DNA of 64,000 nucleotides from Candidatus Kerfeldbacteria bacterium (lineage in GTDB: Bacteria > Patescibacteriota > Patescibacteriia > SBBC01 > CAIJZX01), in assembly GCA_903825245.1 (NCBI GenBank), contig CAIJZX010000016.1:2100-66099 (forward strand), given 5' to 3'. This document shows positions 23,046-46,488 of the stretch, in pieces. Positions within the stretch are counted from its first letter, which is position 1; every line of letters begins with the position of its first letter. The position numbers and the translations under genes are program-made. The notes below the pieces were generated by a model. The model was not told the origin of the DNA. It searched no databases and worked only from the letters and a program-made list of their open reading frames with translations.

Positions 23046-23192
23046 TTAGTCGAACGACACATTGTGCGGGTTCCATTCCTTCCGAAGCTTCTCCAGCCGT
23101 TCGGGGTGCTTGGGGTCGCTGTTGCGACACAGGTAGGGGAAGAAGATGCCATAGACAAGGATGACGAGGGGGATTGCGATCCAGGGAGTCAT
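23046..23192 (-). CDS. Possible small (48 aa) membrane protein MTPWIAIPLVILVYGIFFPYLC…
   Basis: Terminal segment of a long antisense ORF; preceded by GGAGG; hydrophobic helix + charged tail; low confidence. Confidence 0.3.
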   Translation of the reverse strand: MTPWIAIPLVILVYGIFFPYLCRNSDPKHPERLEKLRKEWNPHNVSFD

Positions 23193-23408
23193 CGTGGCCT
23201 CCGCTTGAGTTTGAGTGACAGAACAATACGAACAACACAGTATAGTCCTGATAGGGGATTTTGTCAAGCGCCGAAAAAAACTGTATTCAAGGATGGTAAA
23301 AAACAGGGGTTGACAAATACTTTCCCTGGTGGCAAGATGCGCCCGCATCCGCAGGTTCGCAACTCGCCCTTTCCACACCAATTGCAGCCTTGCTGCAGGA
23401 GGAATCAT

Positions 23409-23879
23409 ATGACCATGAGAGAAGATCGTGAACGTGAGGAACGACAGTTGGCCAAACTGCAAGCCACAGAGCCTGACAAGCCGGTGATTCTGTCGCCGGA
23501 AGATGTTTCCACGAAGCTCAAAGAGCACGACAAGAGGCTCGGTGGCAACAATGGATTGGCGATCGCTGCCATCATCTGCAGTATCGTCATTCCGATCATC
23601 GTAGCGCTCGTCGCACTGCACTTCAGTCACCCCAAGGCCGCAACGACCGGCCTCACCCCCTCGGCGGTGATCGAGCGCATGACTGCCGACAGCATCGCTA
23701 CCCATGACCGGCTTGCCAAGACCGATGCACGCGTCGATAGCCTGCTCCACGTCTGCAAGGCTAATGGCGAAAAGACCGCCGATCTGACTACGCTGGTGGA
23801 GTCGCTGCACGGCCGCTACGACGAGCTCAAGAAGGACGTCTACTTCTTCTTCAACAACCAGGTCATACGCAAGCCGTAA
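23409..23879 (+). CDS. Hypothetical protein (coiled-coil N-terminus, one TM helix), GC-rich
   Basis: Strong SD (AGGAGG-6-ATG); ORF track start 23040 is an extension; upstream TTGACA at ~23305. Confidence 0.55.
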   Translation: MTMREDREREERQLAKLQATEPDKPVILSPEDVSTKLKEHDKRLGGNNGLAIAAIICSIVIPIIVALVALHFSHPKAATTGLTPSAVIERMTADSIATHDRLAKTDARVDSLLHVCKANGEKTADLTTLVESLHGRYDELKKDVYFFFNNQVIRKP

Positions 23880-23994
23880 CCTCGCTCCCCACCACCACAG
23901 AACATCGTGGTGGTTTTTCTTTTGACAATATTTTCGTCTCATGATAGACCCGTAGCAACGAAACCGCTCTTCCCACCTTTCCACGAGGATTCCG

Positions 23995-24297
23995 ATGACC
24001 ACGCACATTAGTCTCATCATGGCCGCATGGGTAATTGTCATCGCTTTGGGCGGACCAATCTTCCATCAGACGTTCAAGGCGCATTATTTTCTCGATTATG
24101 GCTTGCACTATGCCGCTCGCGAACACATGCTGCGAACGGTCGGACTCGACTTACTCTTACTGGCGTTCATCGGTGTCATGATCGGCATCAGGTACCTTGT
24201 TCAGCCGCTCATCGTTCCGATCATCGTCGGCTCGTCTATCTCCGTACTTTCTTTCTGGCTCATCATACGTGCCAGTCTGCGCATGCGAATCGAATAG
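23995..24297 (+). CDS. Hypothetical small membrane protein (3-4 TM helices)
   Basis: ORF translation hydrophobic; followed by terminator. Confidence 0.5.
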   Translation: MTTHISLIMAAWVIVIALGGPIFHQTFKAHYFLDYGLHYAAREHMLRTVGLDLLLLAFIGVMIGIRYLVQPLIVPIIVGSSISVLSFWLIIRASLRMRIE

Positions 24298-24298
24298 C

Positions 24299-24330
24299 AC
24301 CTCCATCGTACGACGGAGGTTTTTTGTAAG
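24299..24330 (+). terminator. Rho-independent terminator (CCTCCATCGTACGACGGAGG + TTTTTTG)
   Basis: Stem-loop followed by T-run directly after 23995..24297. Confidence 0.7.
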
Positions 24331-24381
24331 AAAAAACGGCAGGCTCAAAGTCGAGCACTGCCGTTAGAAAAAGATCAAAAT

Positions 24382-25236
24382 CTACAACTGCCTGAACTTG
24401 GCCTTGATGCCATCCACGACATCGTGGAAAGCTGCACTTGAGGTTAGTTCAGGATGCCAGGCCAAGCCCTTGGCTACCATGTCGATCGTCTCCACAATTC
24501 GCGAACCGGGGATCGGATTCCCAGTCGCGTCATGGTCACGCCCGATCAAGAACAGGTGGTCACCGATGGCCGCCGCTGACTCGATGTCGTGGGTGATGAT
24601 GACGATGGTATTGCCACCATCAAGCGCCGCCAACTCCGCGATCAGCTCACAAACACGTGCCTTCGCCAACACATCGAGACCAGAGAACGGCTCGTCCATC
24701 AGCAAGTAGTGCTGACTGCAGAGCAGCTGCTGGGCGATGGCTACCCGCTGACGCTGTCCGCCGGACAACTGCTCCGGAAACACATCGTAGCGATCAGCCA
24801 GACCGAATCGTTCGAGGAGGATCATCGCCTGACTGTGCGACTCCTTCCGTGAAAGACCAGCCTGTTGTCCAGCAATAACCAGGTTGCTAATCACGCGGTG
24901 GTGTTCGAACAGTGGGTAGTCCTGGGCAACAACACCAACCAGGCCACGGTGGACCGGAATTTCCGTTCCATTGTGATGGATGCGAATCGTGCCCGACACT
25001 TTTGCAGCGCGATCCGGCATCCCAGCAATCAACCGGAACAATTGGGTCTTGCCGAAACCAGACGGACCAAGCAAACAGACGATCTGCCCGTGTCCATCAT
25101 TCTTGCGTACCTCCAAATCGAGATCTCGCAAGATGATCTTATTCCCGAACGCCAAGTTGACTTTCTCGAGCGACAGTAGACGCCCATTCGTCGGCACTTG
25201 CGGCTCAGGAATAGCCGTACTCGCGGTCGTGCTCAT
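24382..25236 (-). CDS. ABC transporter ATP-binding protein (NitT/TauT nitrate/sulfonate/taurine family-like)
   Basis: Walker A GPSGFGKT, signature LSGGQRQRVAIAQ, Walker B LLMDEPFSGLD. Confidence 0.85.
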   Translation of the reverse strand: MSTTASTAIPEPQVPTNGRLLSLEKVNLAFGNKIILRDLDLEVRKNDGHGQIVCLLGPSGFGKTQLFRLIAGMPDRAAKVSGTIRIHHNGTEIPVHRGLVGVVAQDYPLFEHHRVISNLVIAGQQAGLSRKESHSQAMILLERFGLADRYDVFPEQLSGGQRQRVAIAQQLLCSQHYLLMDEPFSGLDVLAKARVCELIAELAALDGGNTIVIITHDIESAAAIGDHLFLIGRDHDATGNPIPGSRIVETIDMVAKGLAWHPELTSSAAFHDVVDGIKAKFRQL

Positions 25237-26021
25237 GAGCGCTCCTTCTTCAAGAAGGCATAGGGGGTAACCAGCCGCTTGATGAGTACAATCACGTTGT
25301 CCTGAACAAGTCCAAGCGCCATAACCGAAATCATGATGGCGAGTACTTGCGGGATGTTGAAGTGCTTATTCTCGGCGATGATCATTGTGCCGACACCGCC
25401 CTCACTCTTAACGATTCCTTCGACCATCGGCAGCATCATCCAGCCAATTCCAGCATTCTGCCGGATGGCATCGATGACTTTGTCGAACGTGCCAAGGACA
25501 ACGACTTCCCACGTCACCTGCCACTCATTCATGCGCAAGGTTCGGGCGTAGTCGTAGCGATCATCTTTGACATCACTGACAATATCGTTGATGGAGGTTG
25601 TCAGGAAGACCATGATGGCGAAGATGAGCAAGGCCAACTTCAGCCGATGCCCGCCGCCGAACATCATGGTGAACAGAAACGGCAGACCGACAAAACCCAG
25701 GTAGCGGAGCGTCGTCACGAACGTCACGAACGGCCGCATAACCGGAAGTCTACCTGAATACGCGAAGGCCATCGAGAACACCGACGCCAGGAAAATCGCT
25801 TGCACGAATGTCCAGAAGCTGTTGATCAGTTCCTGACCCAGTCCGTCGTTCATCCACATATCACCAAAGGCTTGCGTCACCTCCAGCGGTCGTGGAATGA
25901 TCGGACTGGCCATGAACAGCCAGTTGAACATGAGAAAGACCAGAACCAAAAGCGTCAGCAAGCGCCGAGCCAATGGACCGACCTCCTCATTCGGATAGAA
26001 CACACGCCAGATTTTGCCCAT
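25233..26021 (-). CDS. ABC transporter permease (binding-protein-dependent inner membrane component)
   Basis: Multi-TM protein, 4-bp overlap with ATPase gene. Confidence 0.75.
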   Translation of the reverse strand: MGKIWRVFYPNEEVGPLARRLLTLLVLVFLMFNWLFMASPIIPRPLEVTQAFGDMWMNDGLGQELINSFWTFVQAIFLASVFSMAFAYSGRLPVMRPFVTFVTTLRYLGFVGLPFLFTMMFGGGHRLKLALLIFAIMVFLTTSINDIVSDVKDDRYDYARTLRMNEWQVTWEVVVLGTFDKVIDAIRQNAGIGWMMLPMVEGIVKSEGGVGTMIIAENKHFNIPQVLAIMISVMALGLVQDNVIVLIKRLVTPYAFLKKERS

Positions 26022-26100
26022 CGATCCTCCGAAAAAGAAAAGGCGCTCAGTTCCACGAGGAACCGAGCGCCATAGGTGAGCTTCAGATCACCTGGCCCAA

Positions 26101-27927
26101 CTACTGCGAGGTGGACTTGAGGACGATCTGCACCCGGCGATTCTTCGCACGACCCTCGGGGGTGTCGTTCGAAGCAACCGGATTCATCTGACCATGTGCG
26201 AAGACTCGGACGCGACCCGCCGGGAAGTTGGTCGGCGAATGCGACTCGAGCCACTGCTGAACGGCGAAGGCACGGGCTTCCGCCAAACGCTGATTGTCCT
26301 GCAGACGCTGATTGGCGTCCGGGGAGCCAGTGTTGTCGGTATGACCATGCACCTCGACGTACGTGCCGCCCGCGATACCCAAATTCTGGATCAGGTCGCG
26401 GAGCACGGATTCGGCCTTGGGCGTGAACGTCGCCTGACCGGAGTTGAACGTGACGTTGTAATCACGATCGCCCACCGTCGCACCGGGAGTTCCAGAGAAC
26501 GTCTCCGGAGCCTCGGCCGGGGTGGGATTGGGGTTCTTGGCCTGGAGATCCGCCACATACGAGACATTGATGACCTCGGACGCGGGCGGAAAACTCGGCA
26601 CCAGGCGCGGATACTGCTGAACCACGATCTTGCCGAACATTTCGTAGGTGGCCTGAACCAGGTTCTGACCACCGGCGCGTTCGAGTCCGAAGACGTGGAT
26701 CGCATCGGACAGGTTGCAAACCGACGAGCCGCCCAGTGACACCGGAATTCCCTGCTTGTCGGGCTGGATGACACCGTCGAAATACTTCAACCAGTATCCC
26801 GCACCCTTGTTCTCGCCGTAGAGCGCGTTCTCGATCTCGGCGGCATGCTGCTTCGCCTGCGGGTAGGCACGAATCTGGTCCGCTGCGTCGTAACTGGCCA
26901 TGAGCATGTTGTCCAAGGTCGTCCGGTTCGCGTCGTCCCACTTCTTGATACCGATAACCACGCACGGCATCTGGTACTTGTTCTCCTTGGTGCTCAGAAT
27001 CGACACCAGGCCGCCCTTCTTCTCGGCTGCCGTCACGTCGCCCGGAGTCCAGGTAGCGATACCAGTGACACCGATCGTCACGGTTTCACCCGTCGGAACA
27101 CCGTTCTTGACGACTTTGCGAGTCTCGGTATAACCGCTGATGTACTTTGCCGCGGCATCGATGTAGTTATCGGCATTGAGCACGTTGATCGCGTCGGGGT
27201 CAAACGTCTTCTCGTCCGGATTGACCTTGAGGCCATTGTTGCCAGCCCAGATCACCAGGATGTTCCAATCCCCATCACGCAGGACGCACGCCACAAGCTT
27301 GCCAATCGCGAGACGCGGATTCGTCAGCCACGCCGGCGGACCCATCAGCTTGTCTTCACCTCGCGAATAGCCGATGACGCCACAGATTTCGGCGATGAAA
27401 TCTGCACCGAACTTCTTGAGCTTCGGATTGATGCCCTGCAGGAACGCTGCGGCACCGTCGCCCATGATGGTAACAAAGTGCACGCCCTCCGTTGGCTGAG
27501 CAACACCCTTATGCATCTCGTCCGCGGTCTTGAGTAGGTCGCTCTGCAACTGGTTGTTGTCGTCCTGACGAGACCAGTGCACATTGACACCGTACTTCTC
27601 CATCAGCGAACCGCGAGTCGTACTCGGGCCACCGATGGCATACAGCAGACCCATCTGCGCGTTCCAGGCATACCCTTCCATCCGGACCTGCGGCCCATTG
27701 ACCTGGGCCGGTTCCGAACTCGGAATGGGCAGCATGGACACCGAGGTAGCAGAACCACCGGCGTTGTCCGACGGCAGATTGACCGCCGACGGAACACTGG
27801 CCGCCGTGTGCTTGGCACCCGGGATGAGACCATGCGTCACGAGGAACTTACCGCCGAATATGACCGCCGCGATGATGAACAGGCCGATCATGATGATACC
27901 GCCAGACTTGGGACCGCCCTGTGCCAT
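26101..27927 (-). CDS. Membrane-anchored fusion protein: periplasmic substrate-binding-protein-like domain + C-terminal OmpA/MotB peptidoglycan-binding domain
   Basis: N-terminal TM; C-terminus …VEVHGHTDNTGSPDANQRLQDNQRLAEARAFAVQQWL…AHGQMNPVASNDTPEGRAKNRRVQI is a clear OmpA-like domain; central region has SBP-like character (lower confidence). Confidence 0.6.
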   Translation of the reverse strand: MAQGGPKSGGIIMIGLFIIAAVIFGGKFLVTHGLIPGAKHTAASVPSAVNLPSDNAGGSATSVSMLPIPSSEPAQVNGPQVRMEGYAWNAQMGLLYAIGGPSTTRGSLMEKYGVNVHWSRQDDNNQLQSDLLKTADEMHKGVAQPTEGVHFVTIMGDGAAAFLQGINPKLKKFGADFIAEICGVIGYSRGEDKLMGPPAWLTNPRLAIGKLVACVLRDGDWNILVIWAGNNGLKVNPDEKTFDPDAINVLNADNYIDAAAKYISGYTETRKVVKNGVPTGETVTIGVTGIATWTPGDVTAAEKKGGLVSILSTKENKYQMPCVVIGIKKWDDANRTTLDNMLMASYDAADQIRAYPQAKQHAAEIENALYGENKGAGYWLKYFDGVIQPDKQGIPVSLGGSSVCNLSDAIHVFGLERAGGQNLVQATYEMFGKIVVQQYPRLVPSFPPASEVINVSYVADLQAKNPNPTPAEAPETFSGTPGATVGDRDYNVTFNSGQATFTPKAESVLRDLIQNLGIAGGTYVEVHGHTDNTGSPDANQRLQDNQRLAEARAFAVQQWLESHSPTNFPAGRVRVFAHGQMNPVASNDTPEGRAKNRRVQIVLKSTSQ

Positions 27928-27950
27928 GGTGAAATCTCCTTCTTTGGGGT

Positions 27951-27964
27951 TTTGGTTTTTGTGG
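27951..27964. promoter_or_regulatory. Palindrome TGACGT-AA-ACGTCA in promoter region of the ABC operon
   Basis: Read from sequence between 27928 and 27987. Confidence 0.3.
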
Positions 27965-27987
27965 ACTATGACGTAAACGTCACGTCG

Positions 27988-29043
27988 CTACTTCTTGTCG
28001 TTCGGATCGTCTGCAAACAAACGCTGGAGGCCTTCGCCGCCAGTCGTCGTCGAACGCGCCGCCGGAACGCGCTCCCGACCATCACGGAACACCGGCAAAG
28101 CCGATGCATCCGAATGCGCCGAGAGCAATCCCTTGACCGCGGTGCTGCGTTCACGCCAGGCCGACAGTGCCTTCTGCCCCTGCTCCGTTCGGAGCTGAGT
28201 AAGCAGATCACCACTGACCATGGCATTTGAGTCCCGAACGAATGAACGGAACTCCGCCAACTTGGTGTTGAAGTCCTCGACAGCCACTTCCGATGCCCGG
28301 TCGTAGAACCAGGCACCAGCAGAACCGCCCGATAGGATGCGCCGCAGGTTCTGGAATGCCTTGTAGGCGCCCCCCATGATAGTGCGCTTCTTGGTGATTG
28401 CTCGAACAAAACTCTCTGCATCAGCGATCTGGTCGCCAACCGCAGTGAGCATCGTCCTGAGCTCTTCCCTTATTTCTTCAAAGACCGTCCGCATGGAATC
28501 GAATTCGTCCGCATTGGCGTTGCGCCGTGTGGCGTCATTCGTCAGAGTTGTGACCTTGCCGGTCTCACCACGTCGTTGCGCGATGTCGGCCAGCTGCATG
28601 TCCTTCTCTGCTCCAGCGCGTTCGTGCGCACTTTCGTCAGCCAGAGTTGTAATCTGGCCTTCGATGACCGATTCCTGCTTTGCTCCATCCGCTGCTTCTT
28701 TCTTCATCTCCTTGACACGACTCTCGAGGATCGAGATCGGATCGAGATCGATGAAACCCATGGCAACAAAACGCACGAGCGACTCGAAGACGTACCGAAC
28801 GAGGGTTCGGAACCGAGGATTAGCGACGAGCAGAAGGATGGCAACGAGGATACCACCGAGCCAGGCCATGTGAACACCGGTCAAAAGAATATCGACCAGC
28901 GTCGGACCGAGCTTCCACAGAAGCAGGAGTCCAGCCAGGATAGCAATAACCAGTCCACCCTTGGCGAAATTCTTCTCTGGTCGCTGCCAGATGGACTTGA
29001 TAGAACTGCCAGTCGAGACGACCGGCAGATTTGAGATACTCAT
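27988..29043 (-). CDS. Hypothetical membrane protein: two N-terminal TM helices followed by long coiled-coil region
   Basis: ORF translation; possible PspA/TelA-like coiled coil (speculative). Confidence 0.5.
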   Translation of the reverse strand: MSISNLPVVSTGSSIKSIWQRPEKNFAKGGLVIAILAGLLLLWKLGPTLVDILLTGVHMAWLGGILVAILLLVANPRFRTLVRYVFESLVRFVAMGFIDLDPISILESRVKEMKKEAADGAKQESVIEGQITTLADESAHERAGAEKDMQLADIAQRRGETGKVTTLTNDATRRNANADEFDSMRTVFEEIREELRTMLTAVGDQIADAESFVRAITKKRTIMGGAYKAFQNLRRILSGGSAGAWFYDRASEVAVEDFNTKLAEFRSFVRDSNAMVSGDLLTQLRTEQGQKALSAWRERSTAVKGLLSAHSDASALPVFRDGRERVPAARSTTTGGEGLQRLFADDPNDKK

Positions 29044-29058
29044 GTCAGCTCCGATCTC

Positions 29059-29679
29059 CTACTTGAGGTAGGGTTCGAGGTTGGCAGCGTCATTCGCCAG
29101 CCGCTTCTGAACAGCGGCAAAAGCGATATCGAAATCCGTCTGCATCTTTGCCGTCTTTTCCTTGCCGGCCTGGATCTGTCCACGCAGCGTCTGCTGCTGG
29201 GTAACCAGGTCGGTGCGCTGCTGCTGCAACTGCGCGAGTTGCGTGTCAATGGTAGCCAGCTGGCTGTCCATCTCCGTAACCCGGCGCTCCTTGCCGCCGA
29301 CATTCTCGTCCGTCTCGGTTTTGAGCCGCTGAGCGAATTCCACCCGCTCGGTTTCGAGCAGTTGAATTCGCGCGGTCAGCGCCGCCTTGATAGCCGGTGG
29401 CGTGTGCCCATGCAACTTCGCCACCATCTGCAGTGCCTTGCTGTTCCGCTTGGCGGGATCGGGAATGTCTTGCAAATCCGTCAGCATGTTCATGAAGTCG
29501 GTGTACGGCTTGGCCGTTCCGGCATCAACGTCATGCATGATTGCTTCCTCGTAGTGACTCGTGTCACCGGTCGCGACAACCGTCGGCGTACTTGCCGTCG
29601 TGGTTGTCATCGGAGTCGAGGTCACTGTCGGCACGCTCGGACGTGGGGTCGAGGGCTGTTCGCCCTTCTCGTCCCCCAA
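29059..29679 (-). CDS. Hypothetical coiled-coil protein with Thr/Pro-rich N-terminus (TTG start or internal ATG)
   Basis: ORF translation; Q/E/L-rich heptad-like C-terminal half. Confidence 0.45.
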   Translation of the reverse strand: MGDEKGEQPSTPRPSVPTVTSTPMTTTTASTPTVVATGDTSHYEEAIMHDVDAGTAKPYTDFMNMLTDLQDIPDPAKRNSKALQMVAKLHGHTPPAIKAALTARIQLLETERVEFAQRLKTETDENVGGKERRVTEMDSQLATIDTQLAQLQQQRTDLVTQQQTLRGQIQAGKEKTAKMQTDFDIAFAAVQKRLANDAANLEPYLK

Positions 29680-29792
29680 ATCCCAAACATGTTCACGGAT
29701 GAATGCCTTGAGCTTAATCTTTGACAGACCGGCGACCTTACACTACTTTTCCATTTTTGTCAAGAGTTAACTCCGTTATTTGGCTAATATTA

Positions 29793-29823
29793 AAGAAAAA
29801 ACCGATTGTTTGTTACAATCGGT
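29793..29823 (-). terminator. Rho-independent terminator (ACCGATTGT-loop-ACAATCGGT + U-run on minus strand)
   Basis: 9-bp perfect inverted repeat at 29801-29823 with A-run 29795-29800 on plus strand. Confidence 0.7.
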
Positions 29824-29833
29824 ATAGTGTGCC

Positions 29834-30073
29834 CTACTTCGGCGACTTGCTGAGCGTCTGCTCGCAAGCGGTCTTGGCCTTCCGCGCGAGGTAGTCGCGC
29901 ACCTGCGTGGCCATCTTCAGACCGTCGTCCCCGAGGCTGCCCAGGAAATTGGCCGTTACGTCGCCGACGTTCTTGGCTGCCTGGCCGGCTTGGTCGAGGT
30001 CGATAGTAATCTTCCCTCCACGCCGCCTGATGAACTTGGGAACGATCTTGGGAGGAGCTGTCTGCTTCGGCAT
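29834..30073 (-). CDS. Hypothetical small basic protein (79 aa)
   Basis: Good SD (AAGGAG-5-ATG); own terminator. Confidence 0.5.
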   Translation of the reverse strand: MPKQTAPPKIVPKFIRRRGGKITIDLDQAGQAAKNVGDVTANFLGSLGDDGLKMATQVRDYLARKAKTACEQTLSKSPK

Positions 30074-30251
30074 TTCGAACTCCTTTGAGGATCTTCCTCC
30101 ACGACCTGGGAGGAATCAGGAACGGGAACCATTCCCGAGCGGGATATCATTACCATCCAATGAAAAAAAAGTCAATATCCAAACTCCGGGGAACAGAGGT
30201 TATTGGCTAATATCAGAATATTTAAAAATAAAAAGTAGCCCTCAGTCAGAG

Positions 30252-30749
30252 CTACGTAGATGTCCGTTCAGCGATCCTAGTTTTTGCTTCAGCCAGCAGT
30301 TTCGCTTCCAATTGACGGAACAGGCGGCGCATGACCAGGAATGCTTCATGATGGGGCGGTGGACCAGCCGGGATACAATACAGCTTGCTTCCTCCTCCCA
30401 TCCACATTCCGATGTGCGTTTGTCCGATGGCTTCGGGCACTTCCATCCGATCAACGCGAACCACATGCGTCAATTTTCTCTCCGTAACATCGAAGACGAC
30501 GCCGTGTCCGGATTCCGGAATGAACTCAATCCAGTTCAGCCAACCGTCCTTTTCCAAATGCCGACGAATGCTCCGAAGCCTCTGATCGGTCTGATCGTTG
30601 CCGATTGTTCCTGGCTGGACGATCATCTGTTGCACCAGCATCGCAAGCGCCACATCGCGACCGACGATAACACTCGCCGCTGCTAGTCCTTCAACGCCCC
30701 ACCGTTGAATCAACCTGCCGGCCGAAAACAAATTCCGTGTGGTAATCAT
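30252..30749 (-). CDS. Hypothetical protein (165 aa), possible permuted papain-like/NlpC-P60-like hydrolase (weak)
   Basis: Strong SD (AAGGAGG-4-ATG) at internal Met; ORF track start 30995 is an extension; His…Cys arrangement (THIGMWMGG…YCIPAG) only suggestive. Confidence 0.45.
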   Translation of the reverse strand: MITTRNLFSAGRLIQRWGVEGLAAASVIVGRDVALAMLVQQMIVQPGTIGNDQTDQRLRSIRRHLEKDGWLNWIEFIPESGHGVVFDVTERKLTHVVRVDRMEVPEAIGQTHIGMWMGGGSKLYCIPAGPPPHHEAFLVMRRLFRQLEAKLLAEAKTRIAERTST

Positions 30750-30823
30750 GCTACCTCCTTGGGAAAGAACCGCGGCAACCTTAGTACAGGCGCCTCGGAC
30801 TGTCAATAACGAAACAGCGAGTG

Positions 30824-30862
30824 TTACTGCTTCCCTTCGCGTTTCCGCACGTTGGCGTCGTG
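30824..30862 (-). repeat. Degenerate duplicate of the bipA 3' coding end (encodes …HDANVRKREGKQ* vs authentic …[12 protein letters not shown])
   Basis: 30-bp core TTCCCTTCGCGTTTCCGCACGTTGGCGTCG at ~30831-30860 vs TTCCCTTCGCGTTTCCGCAAGTTAGCATCG at ~31838-31867; in-frame with its own stop. Confidence 0.7.
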
Positions 30863-31067
30863 TTAGTACTTTCTGCAACGAATATTGTACATTCATTACA
30901 AGTTGAAGATTAACGCGACTACGCCCGACTCCGTGTTTGTTGGCAGTGTTTTTGTTTTGCTTTTCCAGCACAACTAGCCTTGACAGCATACTCAACCCAT
31001 GTTTGAATGGGCAACTCCTGTCTTAAGGAGCGTTGCTCTTCACAATACTCACCACTATGGAGGTCGA

Positions 31068-31805
31068 ATGTTCCCACTCAACGTGGCTCTCATCGAGGAG
31101 CGCCTCGGGCTGAGCTTCAGCCGTCCAGAGTACTGGCACTATGTATTCTTCGATGAGGCGGCGGATGGCACACCCCCTCCAACTCACCTGGGACAGCAGG
31201 TACTCGCCTACCGAGGTGATAAGGTCATCGATCTGGTCATCGCCGACCACTTCGTAGAACACTACCCGGACCACCGCGATCAGCATGGGCTGTGGCGCAG
31301 TGGCCTCGCCAGCAATGCCGCCTTTCACAAAATCTTGGAGGACCGTGGCGTCCTGATGATCGTTCGACAAACCCAGCACCAACGGGTATTGCTGGGAATC
31401 AAACACGGCGGCACGATGTTCGAAGCCATGATCGCCGTTCTCTATACTGAACATGGACTGGAGTTCGTGCGAACGTATCTGCACCAGACACTGCTGCCCT
31501 GCATCCCGGACGTCATCACGAACGCCTGGAATGAATTCCCGGCCATGCGGTTGAACGCCCTTTGTGCGCGCCATTTTCGAGCCTCACCTGATTTCCAGTC
31601 ACTCGGCTTGGCTGGTAGTCGGCAACGGCAAGCCTTCGCTGTCCGTCTGACGATTTCCGGAGTACTGAAAATCGACGGCTACGGACGAAATCCAGAAGCT
31701 GCCAAGGCACGCGCCATCAGTGACGCCTTCGACATCCTCCGCCGGCGCGGTATTGACGTCAATGCTCAACCGCAGATCGTCCTAGCGATGAACCGCACTT
31801 CGTAA
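31068..31805 (+). CDS. RNase III-like protein with degenerate catalytic signature and C-terminal dsRBD-like region
   Basis: N-terminus LIEERLGLSF… matches RNase III start; signature ERLEFLGDA replaced by VLAYRGDKV; SD GGAGG-5-ATG; GC-rich. Confidence 0.55.
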   Translation: MFPLNVALIEERLGLSFSRPEYWHYVFFDEAADGTPPPTHLGQQVLAYRGDKVIDLVIADHFVEHYPDHRDQHGLWRSGLASNAAFHKILEDRGVLMIVRQTQHQRVLLGIKHGGTMFEAMIAVLYTEHGLEFVRTYLHQTLLPCIPDVITNAWNEFPAMRLNALCARHFRASPDFQSLGLAGSRQRQAFAVRLTISGVLKIDGYGRNPEAAKARAISDAFDILRRRGIDVNAQPQIVLAMNRTS

Positions 31806-31827
31806 CCCGAGGTGCTTTTTTCTTCGC

Positions 31828-33645
31828 TTAGTTTTTCCCTTCGCGTTTCCGCAAGTTAGCATCGAGCTGTCGTTTGCGAATGCGTACCGAAGCTGGTGTC
31901 ACTTCCACAAATTCATCAGCGCCGATATATTCCAGAGCTAATTCCAGTGACATCGTTTTCGGCGGTGCTAATAAAATCGCGGCATCAGAGGCCTTCGAAC
32001 GCATGTTCGATAACTTCTTTTCTTTACAGACATTAATTTCCATATCCTCATCGCGAGAATTTTGGCCGATGACCATGCCAGCGTAGACTTCGACACCTGG
32101 AGCAATAAACAACGTTCCTCGTTCCTGTGCCGTATCAAGGGCGTAACCAGTACTGGCGCCGTTTTCAAAAGCAATCAATGAGCCGTGGGTATTGGCGTTA
32201 ATCAAGTCTGGTTGATACGGTTCGTACTTATTGAATAGGTGATTGACGATCGCCTGGCCGCGACACTTCGTCATCAACGCTGATTTCAAACCAATCACGC
32301 CGCGCGTCGGCATATCATATTCGATATGAAGTTCGCCGGTCGGCGTGGTGTCGATCGAGAGTAAACTTCCCTTACGAACACCGCACTCTTCGATAATCAT
32401 GCCCTGAAATTCACCCGGCACGTCAATCGAGACGAGTTCGTACGGTTCCATTTTAACACCGTCTTTTTCGTGCATGATGACTTGCGGTTGCGAGACTTGC
32501 AATTCAAAACCTTCGCGTCGCATCTGCTCGATTAACACTGCTAAGTGCAATTCGCCGCGACCGGAGACGAGGAAGCTGTTTTCATTTTCCGTTTCTTCAA
32601 CGCGCAGCGCCACGTTCGTTTCCAATTCTTTCATTAAGCGAGCTTGAATCTGCCGTGATGTCACCAACTTGCCTTCATTACCGGCAAACGGCGATGTGCT
32701 AACACCAAACGTCATTTGGACAGTCGGCTGGTCGACTTCGACCGGTGGCAACTGCTTCGGATTTTCTGCGTCAGCAATCGTTTCGCCGATAGCAATTTCA
32801 CCCAATCCAGCGACGGCCACAATTTCTCCGGCTTCAGCCGTTTCCACCACCACTTGTTTCAGACCTTCGTAGACCATAATATCCGTCACCTTGCCTTTGA
32901 CGATTTTTCCATCTGTTTTAATCTCAGCGACCGGTTGATTCTTTGAAATTTTCCCGGCAGTAATTTTCCCGATACCCATCTTACCTTTGTAGTTGTCGTT
33001 CATTAACGCTAACACCAGTATCTGTAATGGTTCGCTGACGTTTACTTCCGGAGCGGGGACTTTGGCCACAATCGTTTCAAATAATGGCGTTAAATCGGTG
33101 CCTGGTTTTTCATGATCCAAGGTCGCGGTGCCAGCAATTGCCGACGCGTAAACGATAGAAAAATCGAGCTGTTCGTGCGTCGCATTCAAGTGTGAAAACA
33201 AATCAAAGGTTTTATTCACCGCTTCATCGGGATCGGCGTCCGGTTTATCGATTTTGTTAACGACAACAATCGCGTTCAAACCGAGTTCGAGTGCTTTTCG
33301 CAACACGAATTTCGTTTGCGGCATCGGACCTTCTTTCGCATCAACCAACAGCAAGACACCATCCACCATGCGGAGGATGCGTTCGACTTCACCACCGAAA
33401 TCCGCGTGGCCCGGCGTATCGACAATGTTGATCTTAATGTCGTTATAGACGATTGAGGCGTTTTTGGCACGAATAGTAATGCCGCGTTCGCGCTCCTGAT
33501 CCATCGAATCCATAATCCGCTCGCCCATTTGATCGAGGTTTCGAGCCGAGTGGGTTTGCTTCAACATGGCATCGACCAAGGTCGTTTTACCATGGTCAAC
33601 GTGGGCGATAATTGCAATATTGCGGATGTTATTTCTGCGTTCCAT
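31828..33645 (-). CDS. typA: Translational GTPase TypA/BipA
   Basis: G-domain [23 protein letters not shown]; full-length BipA architecture. Confidence 0.95.
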
Positions 33646-34440: not shown

Positions 34441-35301
34441 CTACGCCGCGTCGTGTGGACGAAGAATTCTTTCAAACCACAAAACAATCGCCAAGCCAAC
34501 TATCGCCACTATGCCGAAACGTCGCGCATACCACCAGCGATCGCGGTTGGTAATTTCCCGAACTTTCCAGCCGTCAATTTTTCCGACACTTGCTGCCTGT
34601 TCGTGAAAGACGATGGCTTCGGGAATGTACCAGGCCGTGACGCCGAGTTCTTCCGCTCGTTTGAACCATTCCGATTCTAGGCCGACGAATTGTAATGCCT
34701 CATTGAGGCCGCCGATTTCTTCCCACACCGATCGCGATGCAACAAGGCAACTGCTATTCAACACTGGCACGAGTTGCGGTTCAGCAGCCACACGAGTATC
34801 AAGCGAGTACATCAACTGCGGCGAAATCCACGACAGTGCCGGATGCCACGATCTTGGCCATGGCGAACCCTGGTGTTCAGCCGGACCCCAAATCGTTCGT
34901 TTCGATGTATGCGGATAGGCTGTAGTCAAAATATCGCCCTGCGGATCGCGTTGGCGCGGTCCGACAACGGTGCGCGGATGCTGGTCAACCCAAGCAATTA
35001 AACGATCGAGGCTATGCCCTTCAAAGAGCACGTCGGGATGGACGATACAAAGCGTCTCGCCAATCGCATGTTGTGTACCGAAATTCACGGCTTTGGTAAA
35101 GCCGATGTTCTGCGATTGTGGGAAATAGTGACCATGAAAACCGCTGGAATGTAAAATTTCCTTAGCGCCATCTTCCGGCGAGTTATCGACCACAATCACC
35201 TCTAATGATGCCTGGGTGGCGACATGGAGCGAACGCAAACAGTGTTCGAGTTCTTGACTCGAACGAAAGTTGACGATGATGATGGAGAGTTTTGGAGTCA
35301 T
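34441..35301 (-). CDS. Glycosyltransferase family 2
   Basis: LSIIIVNFRS…VVDNSPEDGA GT2 motifs; start overlaps NUDIX stop (ATGA). Confidence 0.8.
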   Translation of the reverse strand: MTPKLSIIIVNFRSSQELEHCLRSLHVATQASLEVIVVDNSPEDGAKEILHSSGFHGHYFPQSQNIGFTKAVNFGTQHAIGETLCIVHPDVLFEGHSLDRLIAWVDQHPRTVVGPRQRDPQGDILTTAYPHTSKRTIWGPAEHQGSPWPRSWHPALSWISPQLMYSLDTRVAAEPQLVPVLNSSCLVASRSVWEEIGGLNEALQFVGLESEWFKRAEELGVTAWYIPEAIVFHEQAASVGKIDGWKVREITNRDRWWYARRFGIVAIVGLAIVLWFERILRPHDAA

Positions 35302-35717
35302 GATTGTGGAAAAGGATGGTAACCCTGCTGTAAAAGATTTCGAATCGGTAAAAATAACGGCCGAGGCAATTCTTCCCAAGCCACCCAGTGCCAGTTTTCA
35401 CTCTTGTCAGGCTCTGGAGTCGTAGGTTCACCCTCCAGACAGTCGGCAATTATAACTAATGTCACACAATGATGACCGACTTCAATGTTGATATCGTTGG
35501 TAAATGTCACCGCACGGACATTAGTAATAACCAAACCGGTTTCTTCCATCGTTTCACGCTGTGCGCAGTTTTCCGGCGTCTCATTCATTTCCAAGTGACC
35601 GCCGGGAAATTGCCATACTGGCGATCTTCCGCTTTTGCGCAAACCTATCAAGACCTGTCGATCACGACAGACGATGACACTAACGCCGACAGATGGACGT
35701 AACATTTGTTGCTCCAT
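35298..35717 (-). CDS. NUDIX hydrolase
   Basis: Nudix box GGHLEMNETPENCAQRETMEETGL. Confidence 0.85.
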   Translation of the reverse strand: MEQQMLRPSVGVSVIVCRDRQVLIGLRKSGRSPVWQFPGGHLEMNETPENCAQRETMEETGLVITNVRAVTFTNDINIEVGHHCVTLVIIADCLEGEPTTPEPDKSENWHWVAWEELPRPLFLPIRNLLQQGYHPFPQS

Positions 35718-36722: not shown

Positions 36723-37127
36723 CTATCGCTTCAGGAAATCCTGTAGGAGTTTCGGTAGGTAATCAACGAGTGGGGATTGGTCGGGGTTCGCCGGATCAAC
36801 CCAGGTAAATGTCTCGTGTTCTGCCGGATTTAAACGAACATAACCACCAGGATGTTTGGCCAGAAAAATGAGACGAAGAAATTGAGTATTTTTTTCAGTA
36901 TCAATATTCGAGGTGAAAGAAAAAAGTTGTAAATCTTTAATGTTCAAGCTTGTCTCTTCTAGTGTTTCACGAATTGCCGCGGCCTGTGGGTCTTCGCCCG
37001 ACTCGCAGCTACCACCAGGTATATCCCAGATTAACGGTAAAACATCATTCTCTTTTGACCGTCGGAGAATTAACGCCCGACCTTGTTGGTCGTAAATAAA
37101 CGCGTGAGCAATAAGAGAAATGTTCAT
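36723..37127 (-). CDS. NUDIX hydrolase
   Basis: Nudix box GGSCESGEDPQAAAIRETLEETSL. Confidence 0.85.
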   Translation of the reverse strand: MNISLIAHAFIYDQQGRALILRRSKENDVLPLIWDIPGGSCESGEDPQAAAIRETLEETSLNIKDLQLFSFTSNIDTEKNTQFLRLIFLAKHPGGYVRLNPAEHETFTWVDPANPDQSPLVDYLPKLLQDFLKR

Positions 37128-37219: not shown

Positions 37220-37855
37220 ATGGTACGAAAAAAGTATACTCCGTTAATAATCTTACCTGCTATTTGTATCTGTTTAGTAGCAGTACTTGTTTGGCCAAAA
37301 AAGAAAGCCCTAGCACCGACCGTGAACACCACTACAGTCACCAATACGGTTCAGCCAGTGGTCAACACGAATTCAGCACCAACGTCGTCAGTTATAACGT
37401 TTTCGACAGTTGATGTACCCGAACGCGATCCGGCTTTTGATTTTTCGATGCAATTACCAGATACCTGGCTGGTGGAATATCAACCGACGCCGAAGGCGAT
37501 TAACGTCTATGCGCCGAAGGGAACCGGCACCAGACTCGGCCAATCAACAGTCTTTATCCAGTACTATACTGGTACAACGTTTCAATTTCCGGCTCGTACG
37601 CTGGCGACGACAAAAAAATCATTCGTCTCAAGCGAACAATCGGTTTCATCCTACACGGAAAAAGCAGTGACAACGGTTGTCCCAACAAACTACCCAACCT
37701 GGTGGTCACAGCAGCATGAGGTGATTGATGTCCGGAGCGGATCCAGCGCGCCGTACACTTTTTTCGTTCTCCATTTTGCGCCGACGCTAGATTCTGCTAC
37801 AATCCAACAACTCTCCAACTCGTTCCACAACGGGTTGTACGCTCAACCAATGTAA
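37220..37855 (+). CDS. Hypothetical secreted/membrane-anchored protein
   Basis: N-terminal TM/signal. Confidence 0.5.
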   Translation: MVRKKYTPLIILPAICICLVAVLVWPKKKALAPTVNTTTVTNTVQPVVNTNSAPTSSVITFSTVDVPERDPAFDFSMQLPDTWLVEYQPTPKAINVYAPKGTGTRLGQSTVFIQYYTGTTFQFPARTLATTKKSFVSSEQSVSSYTEKAVTTVVPTNYPTWWSQQHEVIDVRSGSSAPYTFFVLHFAPTLDSATIQQLSNSFHNGLYAQPM

Positions 37856-37871
37856 TATTCATCGGCACTCT

Positions 37872-38534
37872 ATGGCAAACCCAACCACTTCGCCAAGAAT
37901 TATCGGTATTGTTGCCATTGCCGTCATTATCACCGCGGCGGTATTAATGATGACTGGATATAAACTCGGCGGTAATTCCAATACGAATGATAATGAAAAT
38001 TCCAACGTCAACACGAGCACAACAAATGTTTCATCAACTCAAACGCCAACCAACGTGAAAACCTATACGTTTCCGGGGAAACTCTCGGCCGATAAAATCC
38101 ACAACAAGCAAGCACGTATCGTAACCAACAAAGGAACGATTGTTTTTACGCTGGATGATGCGCAATCGCCGTTAGCGGTCAGTAGTTTTGTGTTCTTAGC
38201 TGAACAAGGATACTTCAATGGTTTGACCTGGCACCGGGTTTTACCAGATTTCGTTATCCAAGGCGGCGATCCGACAGGCACCGGTACGGGCGGTCCGGGG
38301 TACCAATTTCCTGATGAAACAGTGACCGGTGAATACACAATTGGTACGGTGGCGATGGCTAATGCCGGAGCGAATACCAATGGTTCGCAATTCTTTATCT
38401 GCAACGCCGATGATACGCAAAAACTGACTAAGAGCTATTCGATTTTTGGTCATGTTACCCAAGGACTTGATGTGGTCACAAAAATTGCTCAGGGCGATCT
38501 GATGCAGACGGTGACCATCGAACCAGCTTCCTAG
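37872..38534 (+). CDS. Membrane-anchored cyclophilin-type peptidyl-prolyl cis-trans isomerase
   Basis: …WHRVLPDFVIQGGDP…GTVAMANAG…SQFFI. Confidence 0.85.
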   Translation: MANPTTSPRIIGIVAIAVIITAAVLMMTGYKLGGNSNTNDNENSNVNTSTTNVSSTQTPTNVKTYTFPGKLSADKIHNKQARIVTNKGTIVFTLDDAQSPLAVSSFVFLAEQGYFNGLTWHRVLPDFVIQGGDPTGTGTGGPGYQFPDETVTGEYTIGTVAMANAGANTNGSQFFICNADDTQKLTKSYSIFGHVTQGLDVVTKIAQGDLMQTVTIEPAS

Positions 38535-38535
38535 C

Positions 38536-38847
38536 ATGCAAATTGTTTGGGCTTCCGAAGTTGAGCAAAAATTGCGTGAACTCATTGCTGATGCCCCGAT
38601 AACATATCGCAAGTACTTTGATGCCGACGTCAAAAACGCCGCTCGGCTACAAGCGCAGCGTTTAGGTAAATCAGAAATTGATGAGGATGCGATGGTGCGC
38701 GGATTCATTACCTGTGTGCCGCGGCATTTGCGCGACGGGTTACAAGAGGTGCTCGGACAACATAATGTGGATTTACAATATTATTTACCAGTCTTCGATG
38801 AACCGAACCTGGTTCATAAAAGTATTGATAATCCAGCCGGGCAATAG
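38536..38847 (+). CDS. Small protein resembling the PCP_red (protochlorophyllide-reductase C-terminal-like) domain family
   Basis: W-x2-E-x-E…L…IP-like…RK…AR…G…I pattern; weak. Confidence 0.4.
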   Translation: MQIVWASEVEQKLRELIADAPITYRKYFDADVKNAARLQAQRLGKSEIDEDAMVRGFITCVPRHLRDGLQEVLGQHNVDLQYYLPVFDEPNLVHKSIDNPAGQ

Positions 38848-38884
38848 CAGGAATTGAGGGCTTGCCTAAATCGTTACCGTATGA

Positions 38885-39691
38885 GTGATCAATGGTATAC
38901 TGCTTGTACCTATGACCTCGCGTCCTAAAAAAAGTGTAGCCAATCAATCAACTCTGTTTCCAGTACCCAAGAAGCCGGTCAAAGGCACACCAATAAAAGC
39001 TAGGAAAGCGAAAACTGTCCCACAGCGCGTACCGCCATTACCGGGAAAGAAAACGTGGTTGTCGGCGACGGCTATTGAGACCTCTCGGCGCTGTCCACGG
39101 TGTTTCTGGTTGCAGGTGAATTGTAAAATTTACCAACCGGAAGGTATCGTCTCGCGCCTGGCCAATCGGTTTGACGGTGTTATCAAACGCTACTTTGATT
39201 TATATCGCGGTACCGACGCGTTACCACCGATGGTGGCAGGACAACTTGATGGCCGTCTCGAATCGCCGTTCCAAGAAACATACTTTACCAATATCACTGA
39301 GCGATATGGATTTATGGGTAAGCTCGATGAATGCATTATTCGCGCTGATGGCCGATATACGCCAGTGGATCATAAAACTGCCAGCTCCGATCCGACCAAG
39401 CGCGAACTCATTCCGGCTTACCAATTTCAACTCGATAGCTACGCCTTTCTTCTCGAGCAAAATCGTAAACCGACCACCGGCATTGGTCACTTGATTTATT
39501 TTTATCCGGCCGAAGGCGAAAAACTGCATGACGGTTTTCCCATGCAGATAACGGTCAAAACATTAAGCACCGATCCAAGCCGGGTGAAACCACGCGTGCT
39601 AGAAGCAATCGCCGTTTTGGAAGGTTCATTGCCGATACCGTCACCGGAATGTCCGTTCTGTGCCTACGTAGCGACCGTTCAGGATTTTTAA
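38885..39691 (+). CDS. PD-(D/E)XK nuclease, Cas4/RecB-like with Cys cluster
   Basis: Cys pairs CPRC (N-term) and CPFC (C-term), D…DHK (ADGRYTPVDHK) and QxxxY (YQFQLDSY) motifs characteristic of Cas4/AddB nuclease domain. Confidence 0.6.
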   Translation: MINGILLVPMTSRPKKSVANQSTLFPVPKKPVKGTPIKARKAKTVPQRVPPLPGKKTWLSATAIETSRRCPRCFWLQVNCKIYQPEGIVSRLANRFDGVIKRYFDLYRGTDALPPMVAGQLDGRLESPFQETYFTNITERYGFMGKLDECIIRADGRYTPVDHKTASSDPTKRELIPAYQFQLDSYAFLLEQNRKPTTGIGHLIYFYPAEGEKLHDGFPMQITVKTLSTDPSRVKPRVLEAIAVLEGSLPIPSPECPFCAYVATVQDF

Positions 39692-39698
39692 ATTTCTT

Positions 39699-41201
39699 AT
39701 GACGACTGCAGCCAATAAAAAACCATCGAGCGGCGTCTTACTGGCACTCACATCGTTGCCGGGTCCGTTTGGCGTCGGTGATCTTGGACCAGAAGCGTTC
39801 CGGTTTATCGATTGGTTGCAAGTGGCTGGACAACGGTACTGGCAGATTTTACCACTCGCTATTCCAGACGGTACCGGCTCGCCGTATGCATCGCTGTCGA
39901 GTGCGGCTGGAAACTGGTTATTGATAAGTCCGGAGGTGTTGTGGAAGGACGGTTTATTACCAACGAAACCTCGACCACCGTCACGTAGTCCATCGATAGT
40001 ATCCTACAAATCAATAACGGTAGCCAAATGGAAACTTGTACGAACGTCGTATACACATTTTGTATCTCACGCCACGCTAGTTCAGCGACGTTCCTATGCG
40101 GAGTTTCAAAAAAAATCGCATGAGTGGCTTGATGACTATGCTTTGTTTCAGGCCGTCAAAGATCGGCACCAACAGCAACCATGGTGGAGTTGGGAAAAGC
40201 AGTGGCAATCACCGAAAGAAGCGCGACAATACCTCGACCGACACATGGAAAAGCAATTGGCGGTACACATGTACGCCCAATGGTTGTGGGCTGAGCAATG
40301 GTCGCGCGTTCGAACGTATGCACATCGTCACGGCGTCCAGATCATTGGCGATATGCCGTTCTTTATCCGCACCGACAGTGTTGATGTTTGGGCGAATCGA
40401 AATTTATTTCTCTTAGACAAACACGGATCGCCGACAGTCGTAGCCGGTGTGCCGCCGGATGCGTTTTCACGCGACGGCCAGCGATGGGGGAATCCGTTAT
40501 ACAATTGGCCAGCGCATCGTCGCCAGCAGTATAAATGGTGGATCGGACGCTTTCGACGCCTAGCCAGTCGCGTCGATGTCATTCGTTTTGATCATTTCCG
40601 CGGATTAATCAATACCTGGCATATTCCGCAGCGCGCGGAAAATGCGAGGACGGGAAAATGGGTGCCAAGTCCTGGGTTTGAGTTACTCCGCCAAGTAAAA
40701 CGGCATGTGCCGCATTTGCGACTTATTGCCGAAGATCTTGGTCCGGGAAAAGCACATGCCGACGGGTTGCGCCGCGCGTTTCATGCGCCGACCATTCGAC
40801 TCTTGATGTTTGGGTGGAACGGTCTACCGAATAATCCGCATGCTCCTGAGACGATAGCCAATGATACGGTGTACTACACGGCCAATCATGATACCAATAC
40901 GACCGTCGGATGGTGGCGAGACGAAGCAAAATGGTATGAGCGCCTCCATGTTCGCGAGCGACTACACCAGGTTGATGATATTGCTTGGCAAAGCATGGCT
41001 GTAGCCATGCAAACAACGTCACAGATAACGATTGCTCCCATGCAAGACATTTTGCGCCTGGGTACGCGCGGACGGTTCAATCGTCCGGGACGTCGACGTG
41101 GTAATTGGGGATGGCGATTACGAACAGATCAAGTTTCCCCGGTGGTAGCAAAACAACTTCGTCGACTCACGGCGCAGTTTGGACGAACCTCGAAAGCATA
41201 G
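39699..41201 (+). CDS. malQ: 4-alpha-glucanotransferase (amylomaltase, GH77)
   Basis: GH77 N-terminal LLALTSLPGPFGVGDLGPEAFRFIDWL…. Confidence 0.85.
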   Translation: MTTAANKKPSSGVLLALTSLPGPFGVGDLGPEAFRFIDWLQVAGQRYWQILPLAIPDGTGSPYASLSSAAGNWLLISPEVLWKDGLLPTKPRPPSRSPSIVSYKSITVAKWKLVRTSYTHFVSHATLVQRRSYAEFQKKSHEWLDDYALFQAVKDRHQQQPWWSWEKQWQSPKEARQYLDRHMEKQLAVHMYAQWLWAEQWSRVRTYAHRHGVQIIGDMPFFIRTDSVDVWANRNLFLLDKHGSPTVVAGVPPDAFSRDGQRWGNPLYNWPAHRRQQYKWWIGRFRRLASRVDVIRFDHFRGLINTWHIPQRAENARTGKWVPSPGFELLRQVKRHVPHLRLIAEDLGPGKAHADGLRRAFHAPTIRLLMFGWNGLPNNPHAPETIANDTVYYTANHDTNTTVGWWRDEAKWYERLHVRERLHQVDDIAWQSMAVAMQTTSQITIAPMQDILRLGTRGRFNRPGRRRGNWGWRLRTDQVSPVVAKQLRRLTAQFGRTSKA

Positions 41202-41216
41202 ACGCAGATACTGGTT

Positions 41217-43027: not shown

Positions 43028-43039
43028 TCCCACTCCCTC

Positions 43040-43165: not shown

Positions 43166-43236
43166 TTGACATCAGGGCCATTTTTGCATAGGCTCGTTCC
43201 ACGTTCATTTATTCTACAGCCAACCAGGAGGGCGCA

Positions 43237-43743: not shown

Positions 43744-43774
43744 TCACTCCCCACGAGTGATTTTTTCTTTTTTG

Positions 43775-46382: not shown

Positions 46383-46488
46383 GCTGAACCTCCGGTTGGA
46401 GAGAACAGGTGAACGTCTGTTATGAATGAACGTCTTCACAGACCCTAACACTTTATAGTATCAAGTCAATAACTAGAAAATATTCATA

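Follow-up and report, generated by a model that had tools for sequence, protein, structure and literature searches.

An orphan copy of the bipA 3′ end beside an RNase III-like gene as a possible insertion scar in a Candidatus Kerfeldbacteria genome

Why should a genome carry the end of a housekeeping gene twice, once in place and once about 1 kb away with no gene attached to it? The question is posed by a contig of Candidatus Kerfeldbacteria (CAIJZX010000016.1, positions 2,100 to 66,099 of the forward strand; this whole stretch of 64,000 nucleotides is called the window below), in which the last codons of the GTPase gene bipA/typA recur on the far side of a gene for an RNase III-like protein. 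An initial annotation, made from the sequence alone, took the second copy for the scar of a site-specific integration, in which an incoming element had supplied bipA with a replacement end and displaced the original. Our analysis favors a related history, a single-crossover (Campbell-type) insertion within the final codons of bipA that would have left the orphan as its scar; we rate this as evenly poised between right and wrong.

The live gene, bipA/typA (31828-33645, minus strand, 605 aa), is full length and of the expected architecture (GTP_EFTU, EFG_C and BipA_C; Pfam E-values 1.5e-56, 4.7e-18 and 2.2e-45), and its product is 75-92% identical to about 55 TypA proteins, the nearest of which are labelled Candidatus Kerfeldbacteria by their sources; the source organism is uncultivated. 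Its last 12 codons and stop (31828-31866, minus strand) have their direct-repeat partner in an orphan bipA 3′ end at 30824-30872 on the same strand, a non-coding stretch in which the last 12 codons and stop occupy 30824-30862 and read HDANVRKREGKQ up to the stop. A repeat search returned 30824-30860 against 31828-31864 as a direct repeat of 37 nt with 31 identities (84%) and a spacing of 1004; over the 12 codons and stop 32/39 positions match, and the next-best match in the 64 kb, both strands searched, is 23/39. The copies therefore lie where the initial annotation had placed them, and its figure of about 27 identities in 30 was an overstatement (31/37 or 32/39 is correct). The orphan is in frame, as had been proposed: read on the minus strand it runs Y-stop-HDANVRKREGKQ-stop, with an in-frame TAA before it (30863-30865) and a stop of its own at the end. 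In a gapped local alignment the match reaches 49 nt (30824-30872) through a single 1-nt indel, beyond which about 10 more nucleotides of the bipA tail are recognizable, at a score of 25.5 against 9.6 ± 1.3 for shuffled sequence (maximum 15.5; z ~12), which agrees with the earlier view that chance is not the explanation. BLAST of the orphan stretch against the bipA end of two relatives (L171 and L172; L numbers denote loci or contigs of relatives) gave 78% identity over 50 nt (E 9e-4). No third or degenerate bipA-tail copy was found in the window by sliding nucleotide match or six-frame motif search (best other match 23/39). An assembly artefact was ruled out, since L168, a contig of an independent ENA assembly, matches 28974-32859 with one mismatch and so includes both copies.

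The seven differences between the copies fall at positions 2, 6, 9, 13, 33, 34 and 36 of the 39 in gene orientation and leave positions 14-32 clean. This exact 19-nt core, TTCCCTTCGCGTTTCCGCA, lies at 30831-30849 in the orphan, where it is the proposed crossover region, and at 31835-31853 in the live copy; no other occurrence was found in the window even with 3 mismatches allowed. For 7 mismatches placed at random in 39 positions, a perfect run of 19 nt has P = 0.04-0.056. At 5/5 synonymous sites the core is the window's own bipA allele, and L171, L173 and L174 differ there. The arms diverge. Upstream of the core the orphan reads GAC GCC AAC G, as in the alleles of L171, L110 and L181, against GAT GCT AAC T in the live gene, and the four differences of the orphan in this arm are T to A, T to C, T to C and T to G. 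GC content at third codon positions (GC3) is 9/11 in the orphan tail and 6/11 in the live tail, the latter as in the rest of bipA. Composition thus disagrees with the initial polarity of an imported live tail and a displaced native orphan: the live tail is native-like, and it is the orphan, at least in its upstream arm, that looks foreign. Because the two tails (32/39) are no closer to each other than are the orthologous tails of other species (29-32/39; orphan against L171, 30/39), they look like two alleles with separate histories as coding sequence that came together later and share a core.

Between the copies lies one complete transcription unit, comprising an upstream region, a GGAGG ribosome-binding site, an open reading frame (ORF) of 245 aa and an intrinsic terminator. 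The first 70-80 nt or so of the upstream region (30873-31067, plus strand) are without detectable relative; from about 30944 to 31067, alignment and direct reading showed homology to the DNA that precedes the RNase III-like gene in L163 and L176, with a T-run, CTTGAC, a TTGAAT/TTGGAT box and the GGAGG site in common, and a promoter for the unit may be assigned here. The ORF (31068-31805, plus strand) has an RNase III domain (PF00636, E 3.6e-8) and a C-terminus resembling a double-stranded RNA-binding domain (dsRBD). Its terminator (31795-31815, annotated to 31825, plus strand) holds the stop codon within the loop and is conserved in L163, L176 and L167; 22 nt separate the RNase III-like stop from the bipA stop. 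GC3 of the gene is 0.67, against 0.53 for bipA overall, 0.46 for the last 300 nt of bipA and 0.37-0.57 for the window background; with a patchy distribution on the BipA tree, this marks the DNA between the copies as foreign. Domain assignments thus confirm both the live bipA and the RNase III-like gene that the initial annotation had recognized between the copies, and the intervening DNA is, as it had held, a single self-contained gene unit of atypical composition.

These features could be joined as follows. A small circular DNA would have carried the RNase III-like unit together with a piece of bipA tail that had abutted the unit in a previous host, and would have recombined with the resident bipA inside the 19-nt stretch common to both tails. 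The live bipA would have kept its own body and upstream arm (GAT GCT AAC T) and its last 7 nt (AAACTAA) would have come from the incoming DNA; the upstream arm brought in by the circle (…GAC GCC AAC G) would have been joined to the resident's former end (G CAG TAA) to form a hybrid orphan, and the DNA that formerly followed bipA, a 165-aa ORF and a GC-rich block, would now follow that hybrid. Since the bipA reading frame would be preserved, the event would have cost the host nothing. The attB-type junction would have been …GATGCTAACT-core-GCAGTAACACTCGC…, i.e. …CAGCTCGATGCTAACT-TGCGGAAACGCGAAGGGAA-GCAGTAACACTCGCTGTTTCG…, and the circle, or attP-type junction, …AAAGTACTAACACGACGCCAACG-TGCGGAAACGCGAAGGGAA-AAACTAAGCGAAGAAAAAAGCACC…. 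The joining could have been carried out by a site-specific recombinase acting in trans or by homologous recombination; a core of 19 nt is short for RecA-mediated recombination, though not impossible. We infer the circular intermediate, the crossover position and the order of events. Such an insertion would explain both the foreign-looking upstream arm of the orphan and the native-looking arm of the live gene, and only a model that places the inserted piece between the copies fits the observed order of block, orphan, RNase III-like gene and bipA. Insertion is thus the simplest model.

Several other routes were considered and rejected. A circle carrying the GC-rich block would put the orphan beside the RNase III terminator and is ruled out by the gene order. 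Tandem segmental duplication would leave two RNase III genes; a single one is present, and the flanks to the left of the two copies are unrelated. A recent import of a long 3′ part of bipA by homology-facilitated illegitimate recombination (HFIR) was not upheld: sliding identity and informative sites gave general mosaicism with no clean clade-A 3′ segment, and GC3 of the last 300 nt is native. A tRNA or tmRNA as insertion target is excluded, as neither is found in the window. Two other repeat families, D2 and D4 (24328, 29791, 33753), proved to be merely minus-strand intrinsic terminators.

Prophages, genomic islands, integrative and conjugative elements and integrative and mobilizable elements that integrate at the 3′ end of a protein or tRNA gene leave attL and attR and carry a replacement 3′ end (the Campbell model). 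The window has the corresponding anatomy, that of an attL/attR-type scar at a housekeeping-gene 3′ end: an imperfect direct repeat, with the functional end of the live gene in one copy and in the other a displaced end that stays in frame up to a stop of its own; DNA of foreign composition between the copies; and an intact host gene. A perfect core between diverged arms would also fit, on statistics that are marginal. The likeness is incomplete. The inserted DNA measures about 1 kb and holds one cargo gene and no integrase, excisionase or other mobility gene; its family is known only beside bipA in one clade; and here the upstream arm of the orphan looks foreign, not the live tail. No integrase or recombinase gene was found next to the att-like site or elsewhere in the ORFs scanned, and the claim that no integrase remains nearby holds for those examined by Pfam between 14 and 59 kb. 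Tyrosine and serine recombinases and transposases were sought by Pfam, NCBIfam and PADLOC in the larger ORFs of 14-37 kb and in those of the GC-rich islands within 43-48 and 55-59.5 kb, and none was found. A literature search returned no record of bipA/typA as an attachment site, its matches being spurious word matches; the kind of scar is familiar, and the site, the bipA tail, has not been described before.

Non-replicating circles such as suicide plasmids integrate through a single crossover by homologous recombination. They too leave a direct duplication of exactly the homologous segment of the circle, with hybrid copies and no dedicated recombinase; here, however, perfect homology extends over just 19 nt (37-49 nt imperfect), and gene-sized circles would need a natural source. 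Staphylococcal cassette chromosome (SCC) and pseudo-SCC arrays form at the rlmH (orfX) 3′ end in staphylococci, and tycheposon-type cargo arrays at partial tRNA repeats. In both, as here, a housekeeping-gene 3′ end serves as a reusable slot, recombinase-less modules are bounded by short direct repeats and content varies between close relatives. The window differs in having one repeat pair, with nothing to bound the older DNA at 24-31 kb, whereas a tandem cassette array would have at least 3 att copies and only two were found in the 64 kb; no recombinase occurs in any member found here, and the organisms are uncultivated and known from metagenome-assembled genomes (MAGs). The nearest analogues are pseudo-SCC cassettes at rlmH that lack a recombinase, or the remnants of cargo left at partial-tRNA repeats.

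If bipA received an insert in the window, what follows bipA in its relatives? The loci of the closest BipA relatives were read among the proteins of 75-92% identity. In L172 and L171 (BipA 91% identical) and L173 (90%), a NUDIX gene and bipA are followed after 75-81 nt by a conserved cluster (a 210-aa protein, a peptidyl-prolyl isomerase (PPIase), DUF2621, PDDEXK, GH77 and more) that is homologous to 37220-44461 in the window. In L174 (87%) 4.3 kb of NfeD/Band_7 cargo separates bipA from this cluster; L180 and L181 (91-92%) have other small genes after bipA; L083, L003 and L110 have a convergent STAS gene; and L163 (89%) has both a STAS gene and an RNase III-like gene in the same place. The cluster follows bipA on the same strand within 4-8 kb in L163, L083 and L003. 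The interval directly past the bipA stop, empty in L172 and L173 and filled differently in L174, L180/181, L083, L003 and L163, is therefore a variable cargo slot in this clade. The slot content of L163 (8452-10738: a 128-aa ORF, a 148-aa ORF, STAS and the RNase III-like gene) has a GC3 of 0.74-0.89, against 0.37-0.66 for the flanking core genes. Relatives had been proposed as a source of empty sites. L172 and L173 do lack an insert, but the gene that follows bipA there, the first of the cluster, differs from the gene that follows the orphan, and the closest BipA relative is only 92% identical.

The tails themselves also vary. In L180 (1877-1915) and L181 (1993-2031) BipA is 91-92% identical to that of the window and yet ends in KRD(K/R)K(A/S)GE (KRDKKAGE in one form), not KREGKN, before the stop; the extreme BipA C-terminus in this clade seems either to have been swapped or to be evolving far faster than the rest of the protein.

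The RNase III-like protein forms a small and isolated family. Five clusters were recovered from 5.8e9 proteins, and in an exhaustive hidden Markov model search of 1.84e9 representatives the family was a single isolated 50% cluster (next match E 4e-29). Viral origin of the cargo was rejected, no relatives being present in IMG/VR. All five known members are found no more than about 1 kb from a bipA 3′ end, in one clade: L163 and L176 have STAS, the RNase III-like gene and then convergent bipA, L177/178 the RNase III-like gene and then convergent bipA, and L167 the RNase III-like gene, two STAS genes and then convergent bipA. The notion of a roaming cargo gene accordingly fails. In a rough BipA tree the window groups with genomes that lack the RNase III-like gene, L163, L176 and L177 lie elsewhere, and L167 occupies a third place. 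This placement points to transfer of the gene, but bipA itself is mosaic and the tree is therefore only suggestive. The protein shares with class 1 bacterial RNase III (rnc), and with the RIIIDb-dsRBD part of Drosha, an RNase III domain followed by a dsRBD-like region. It is not a canonical bacterial RNase III: it scores 45.9 bits on TIGR02191, far below the cut-off of 166.25, in an alignment spanning positions 34-217 of 219, and two signature acidic residues are replaced in 5/5 members (LAYRGD for (E)FLGD, and TMFE, in GGTMFEA, for DxxE). Its best relatives of solved structure are human Drosha RIIIDb and dsRBD (E 9e-16, 61 bits), with Aquifex RNase III at 0.002.

Further observations weigh against insertion into bipA. 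The statistic for the perfect core is marginal, and bipA of the window is without clear 3′ mosaicism. The ORFs scanned between 14 and 59 kb yielded no recombinase, and the available genomes neither a circular form nor an empty site in the same flanking context. The junction from terminator to bipA stop and the region upstream of the RNase III-like gene are homologous in the window, L163 and L176, and the latter two have no bipA-tail orphan, so that the adjacency either predates the orphan or came inherited with the insert; L177/178 share the convergent adjacency with a different terminator module and, again, no orphan. A bipA-tail orphan is in fact absent from all the other RNase III-bearing genomes. 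The initial annotation had named the same arrangement without repeats in relatives as grounds for abandoning its reading, and this was found in part, as a homologous junction in L163/L176 and a bare adjacency in L177/178. A family restricted to one clade, with five genomes and bipA as its constant neighbor, could reflect vertical inheritance and loss just as well as targeted mobility. The donor tail that an insertion implies, DANVRKREGKN, is of the type of the window's own subclade, in which no other RNase III-bearing genome is known, and such a donor was not seen. Finally, the supposedly resident DNA to the left of the orphan is itself compositionally foreign. Of the original proposal of an integration scar at the bipA 3′ end, a true 3′-end relic, an att-like repeat and a variable slot thus stand; against it are the same junction without an orphan in L163/L176 and the lack of a roaming cargo. 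The unit would either have lived against a bipA tail earlier, or have been resident when the orphan arrived with the DNA to its left.

The second of these histories turns on that left-hand DNA. A GC3-rich block (23046-30823) runs almost throughout on the minus strand, co-oriented with the orphan except for a 100-aa membrane ORF (23995-24297, plus strand), and GC3 over 23.0-31.83 kb is 0.58-0.83 against the window background given above. Next to the orphan stands an ORFan of 165 aa (30252-30749, minus strand), which begins 75 nt past the orphan's stop at an ATG with an AGGAGG site and has its own terminator (30255-30235). A 79-aa ORF follows, also with its own terminator, and the minus-strand gene run then extends to about 23 kb with ORFs of 206, 351 and 331 aa, a 608-aa protein with an OmpA C-terminal domain, an ABC permease and an ABC ATPase. 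The orphan may belong to this DNA: the foreign bipA 3′ end and the genes following it would have come from a GC-richer relative and been joined, by illegitimate recombination or a rearrangement, just ahead of an RNase III-like gene that was already resident and vertically inherited, with STAS displaced, or a transient second bipA would have been deleted down to its last 15 codons. The orphan codons (GC3 9/11) resemble the block and not native bipA; nearly all block genes share the orphan's orientation, and the first starts at a distance equal to the spacing between bipA and the next gene in L172; the orphan is no nearer to the live tail than other species' tails are; the junction and upstream region of the RNase III-like gene are common to L163/L176, where a STAS gene stands upstream; and the bipA region of the window is rearranged relative to all relatives. 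Yet it would then be a coincidence that the fragment came to lie in direct orientation so close (1 kb) to the resident bipA, a homology-guided event giving a different gene order; the core is the window's own allele at every synonymous site at which L171, L173 and L174 differ; and in about 180 loci no homolog of the block genes or of the 165-aa ORF follows bipA. We regard this history as possible and somewhat unlikely.

The 165-aa ORFan had no homolog but itself in 5.8e9 proteins and is therefore of no use for locating an empty site. Public gene calls lengthen it to 239-245 aa (30252-30995, minus strand), crossing the orphan in another frame; the ATG at 30749 is more likely to be its start, the AGGAGG site making it the better one. 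The 79-aa and 165-aa ORFs each have a promoter-like site and a terminator and look like single-gene modules, and the motif TTGGCTAATAT recurs at about 29786-29796 and 30206-30216, adjoining their terminators. The 100-aa membrane ORF has a homolog in the cargo slot of L003, which is compatible with reading all of 24-31.8 kb as slot content, and the block is probably older cargo of the same post-bipA slot. The earlier suggestion that successive insertions account for 24-31.8 kb is plausible in this light; it is not shown, and a third copy of the repeat is lacking. PADLOC did not recognize the block as a defence system, returning weak ZorB/OmpA-domain and ABC matches alone. More GC3-rich islands (0.60-0.80) occur at 45300-46451 and 55303-59467, one with a T2SSE-type secretion ATPase and the other a run of ORFs without Pfam match.

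Rearrangement of the region also suggests another origin for the repeat. In the window bipA has lost both ancestral neighbors: the downstream cluster now lies at 37220-44461, upstream of bipA and on the opposite strand, and no ortholog of the NUDIX gene remains (two non-orthologous NUDIX genes are present at 35298-35717 and 36723-37127). The repeat could be a by-product of the event that parted bipA from the cluster, for example a duplicative break and repair, or template switch, that copied about 50 nt of the bipA end. The position of the cluster, directly after bipA in L172/L173 and within 4-8 kb in L163, L083 and L003, speaks for such an event, as do the loss of the NUDIX gene upstream and the fact that homology to L163 ends at the position of the orphan. 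Inversions between repeats or by staggered breaks, however, leave inverted copies, and the copies here are direct; inversion between the repeats was rejected on this ground and because no copy lies at the cluster start, where no bipA-tail remnant was found. The seven differences, synonymous ones among them, are those of alleles diverged for some time rather than of a fresh copy, and the inversion breakpoint is not placeable at the orphan with present data. We consider a by-product of rearrangement very unlikely.

Could the similarity instead be fortuitous, or be kept for a function? The core holds a small GNRA-type hairpin, GCG-GAAA-CGC, on direct reading, and the cargo protein, with its dsRBD-like domain, is always convergent with bipA; an RNA or DNA site common to the bipA 3′ end and the region between the 165-aa ORF and the RNase III-like gene might serve antisense or dsRNA control by the RNase III-like protein. 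Chance, for its part, is excluded by the alignment score (z ~12) and the next-best match of 23/39. The codon frame is respected by the similarity even across a stop codon, and a second bipA tail is absent from every other genome with the RNase III-like gene. Taken together, chance or function is extremely unlikely.

Comparable structures were found in other genomes. In L178 a 58-nt direct repeat of local sequence (54/58; 12-69 and 955-1012) brackets the RNase III-like gene. It consists of a stop codon and terminator module and ends exactly at the bipA stop, and both L177 and L179 are contigs that break within it. Either a second scar of insertion or a terminator repeat found genome-wide could account for it; in L176 a weak counterpart of 20 nt is present. 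A bipA-tail duplication proper is present in an unrelated AT-rich lineage (BipA 53% identical), at 7467-7516 and 8177-8226 of L123 and likewise in L036. There bipA is followed by a convergent gene for a lipoprotein-like protein of 207 aa and then by an orphan tail of 15 codons and stop (36/50), with about 10 synonymous and 2 replacement differences between the copies. GC3 is 0.75 in the live tail and 0.29 in the gene as a whole, so that there it is the live tail that looks imported and the orphan that looks native; the compositional evidence for a swapped tail is clearer than in the window and of opposite polarity. Among the relatives L135, L068, L128 and L127 the interval between bipA and nth ranges from 0 to 2.3 kb, bipA abutting nth in L135 and other inserts occurring elsewhere. 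As a control, 1971 ORF ends were searched and about 6 other tail duplications were found, mostly paralogs or repeats, so bipA is not convincingly enriched. At an unrelated locus (L054, about 2147-2185 and 2302-2340) the 3′ end of a 239-aa ORF has an exact 39-nt copy 117 nt downstream. A wider proposal would make the bipA end a dedicated, reusable slot that small recombinase-less cassettes enter through a spare bipA tail, in trans or by short homology, with the Drosha-like, catalytically altered RNase III gene as one such cassette, passing only between the bipA tails of related genomes, and the L123/L036 duplication, the L178 bracket and the tail swaps as products of one process; we think this unlikely.

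If the insertion into the last codons of bipA is real, bipA/typA would join the housekeeping genes whose last codons serve as an insertion site, and in uncultivated bacteria with small genomes a single accessory gene could slot in with no mobility gene remaining. For practical purposes the orphan marks where cargo can be delimited in these MAGs, and it cautions that BipA proteins of this clade may have a mixed origin in their C-terminal 8-12 residues. Of greater interest, perhaps, is the cargo: an isolated family whose best matches of solved structure are to Drosha, with altered catalytic motifs and a gene always convergent with that of a ribosome-assembly GTPase.

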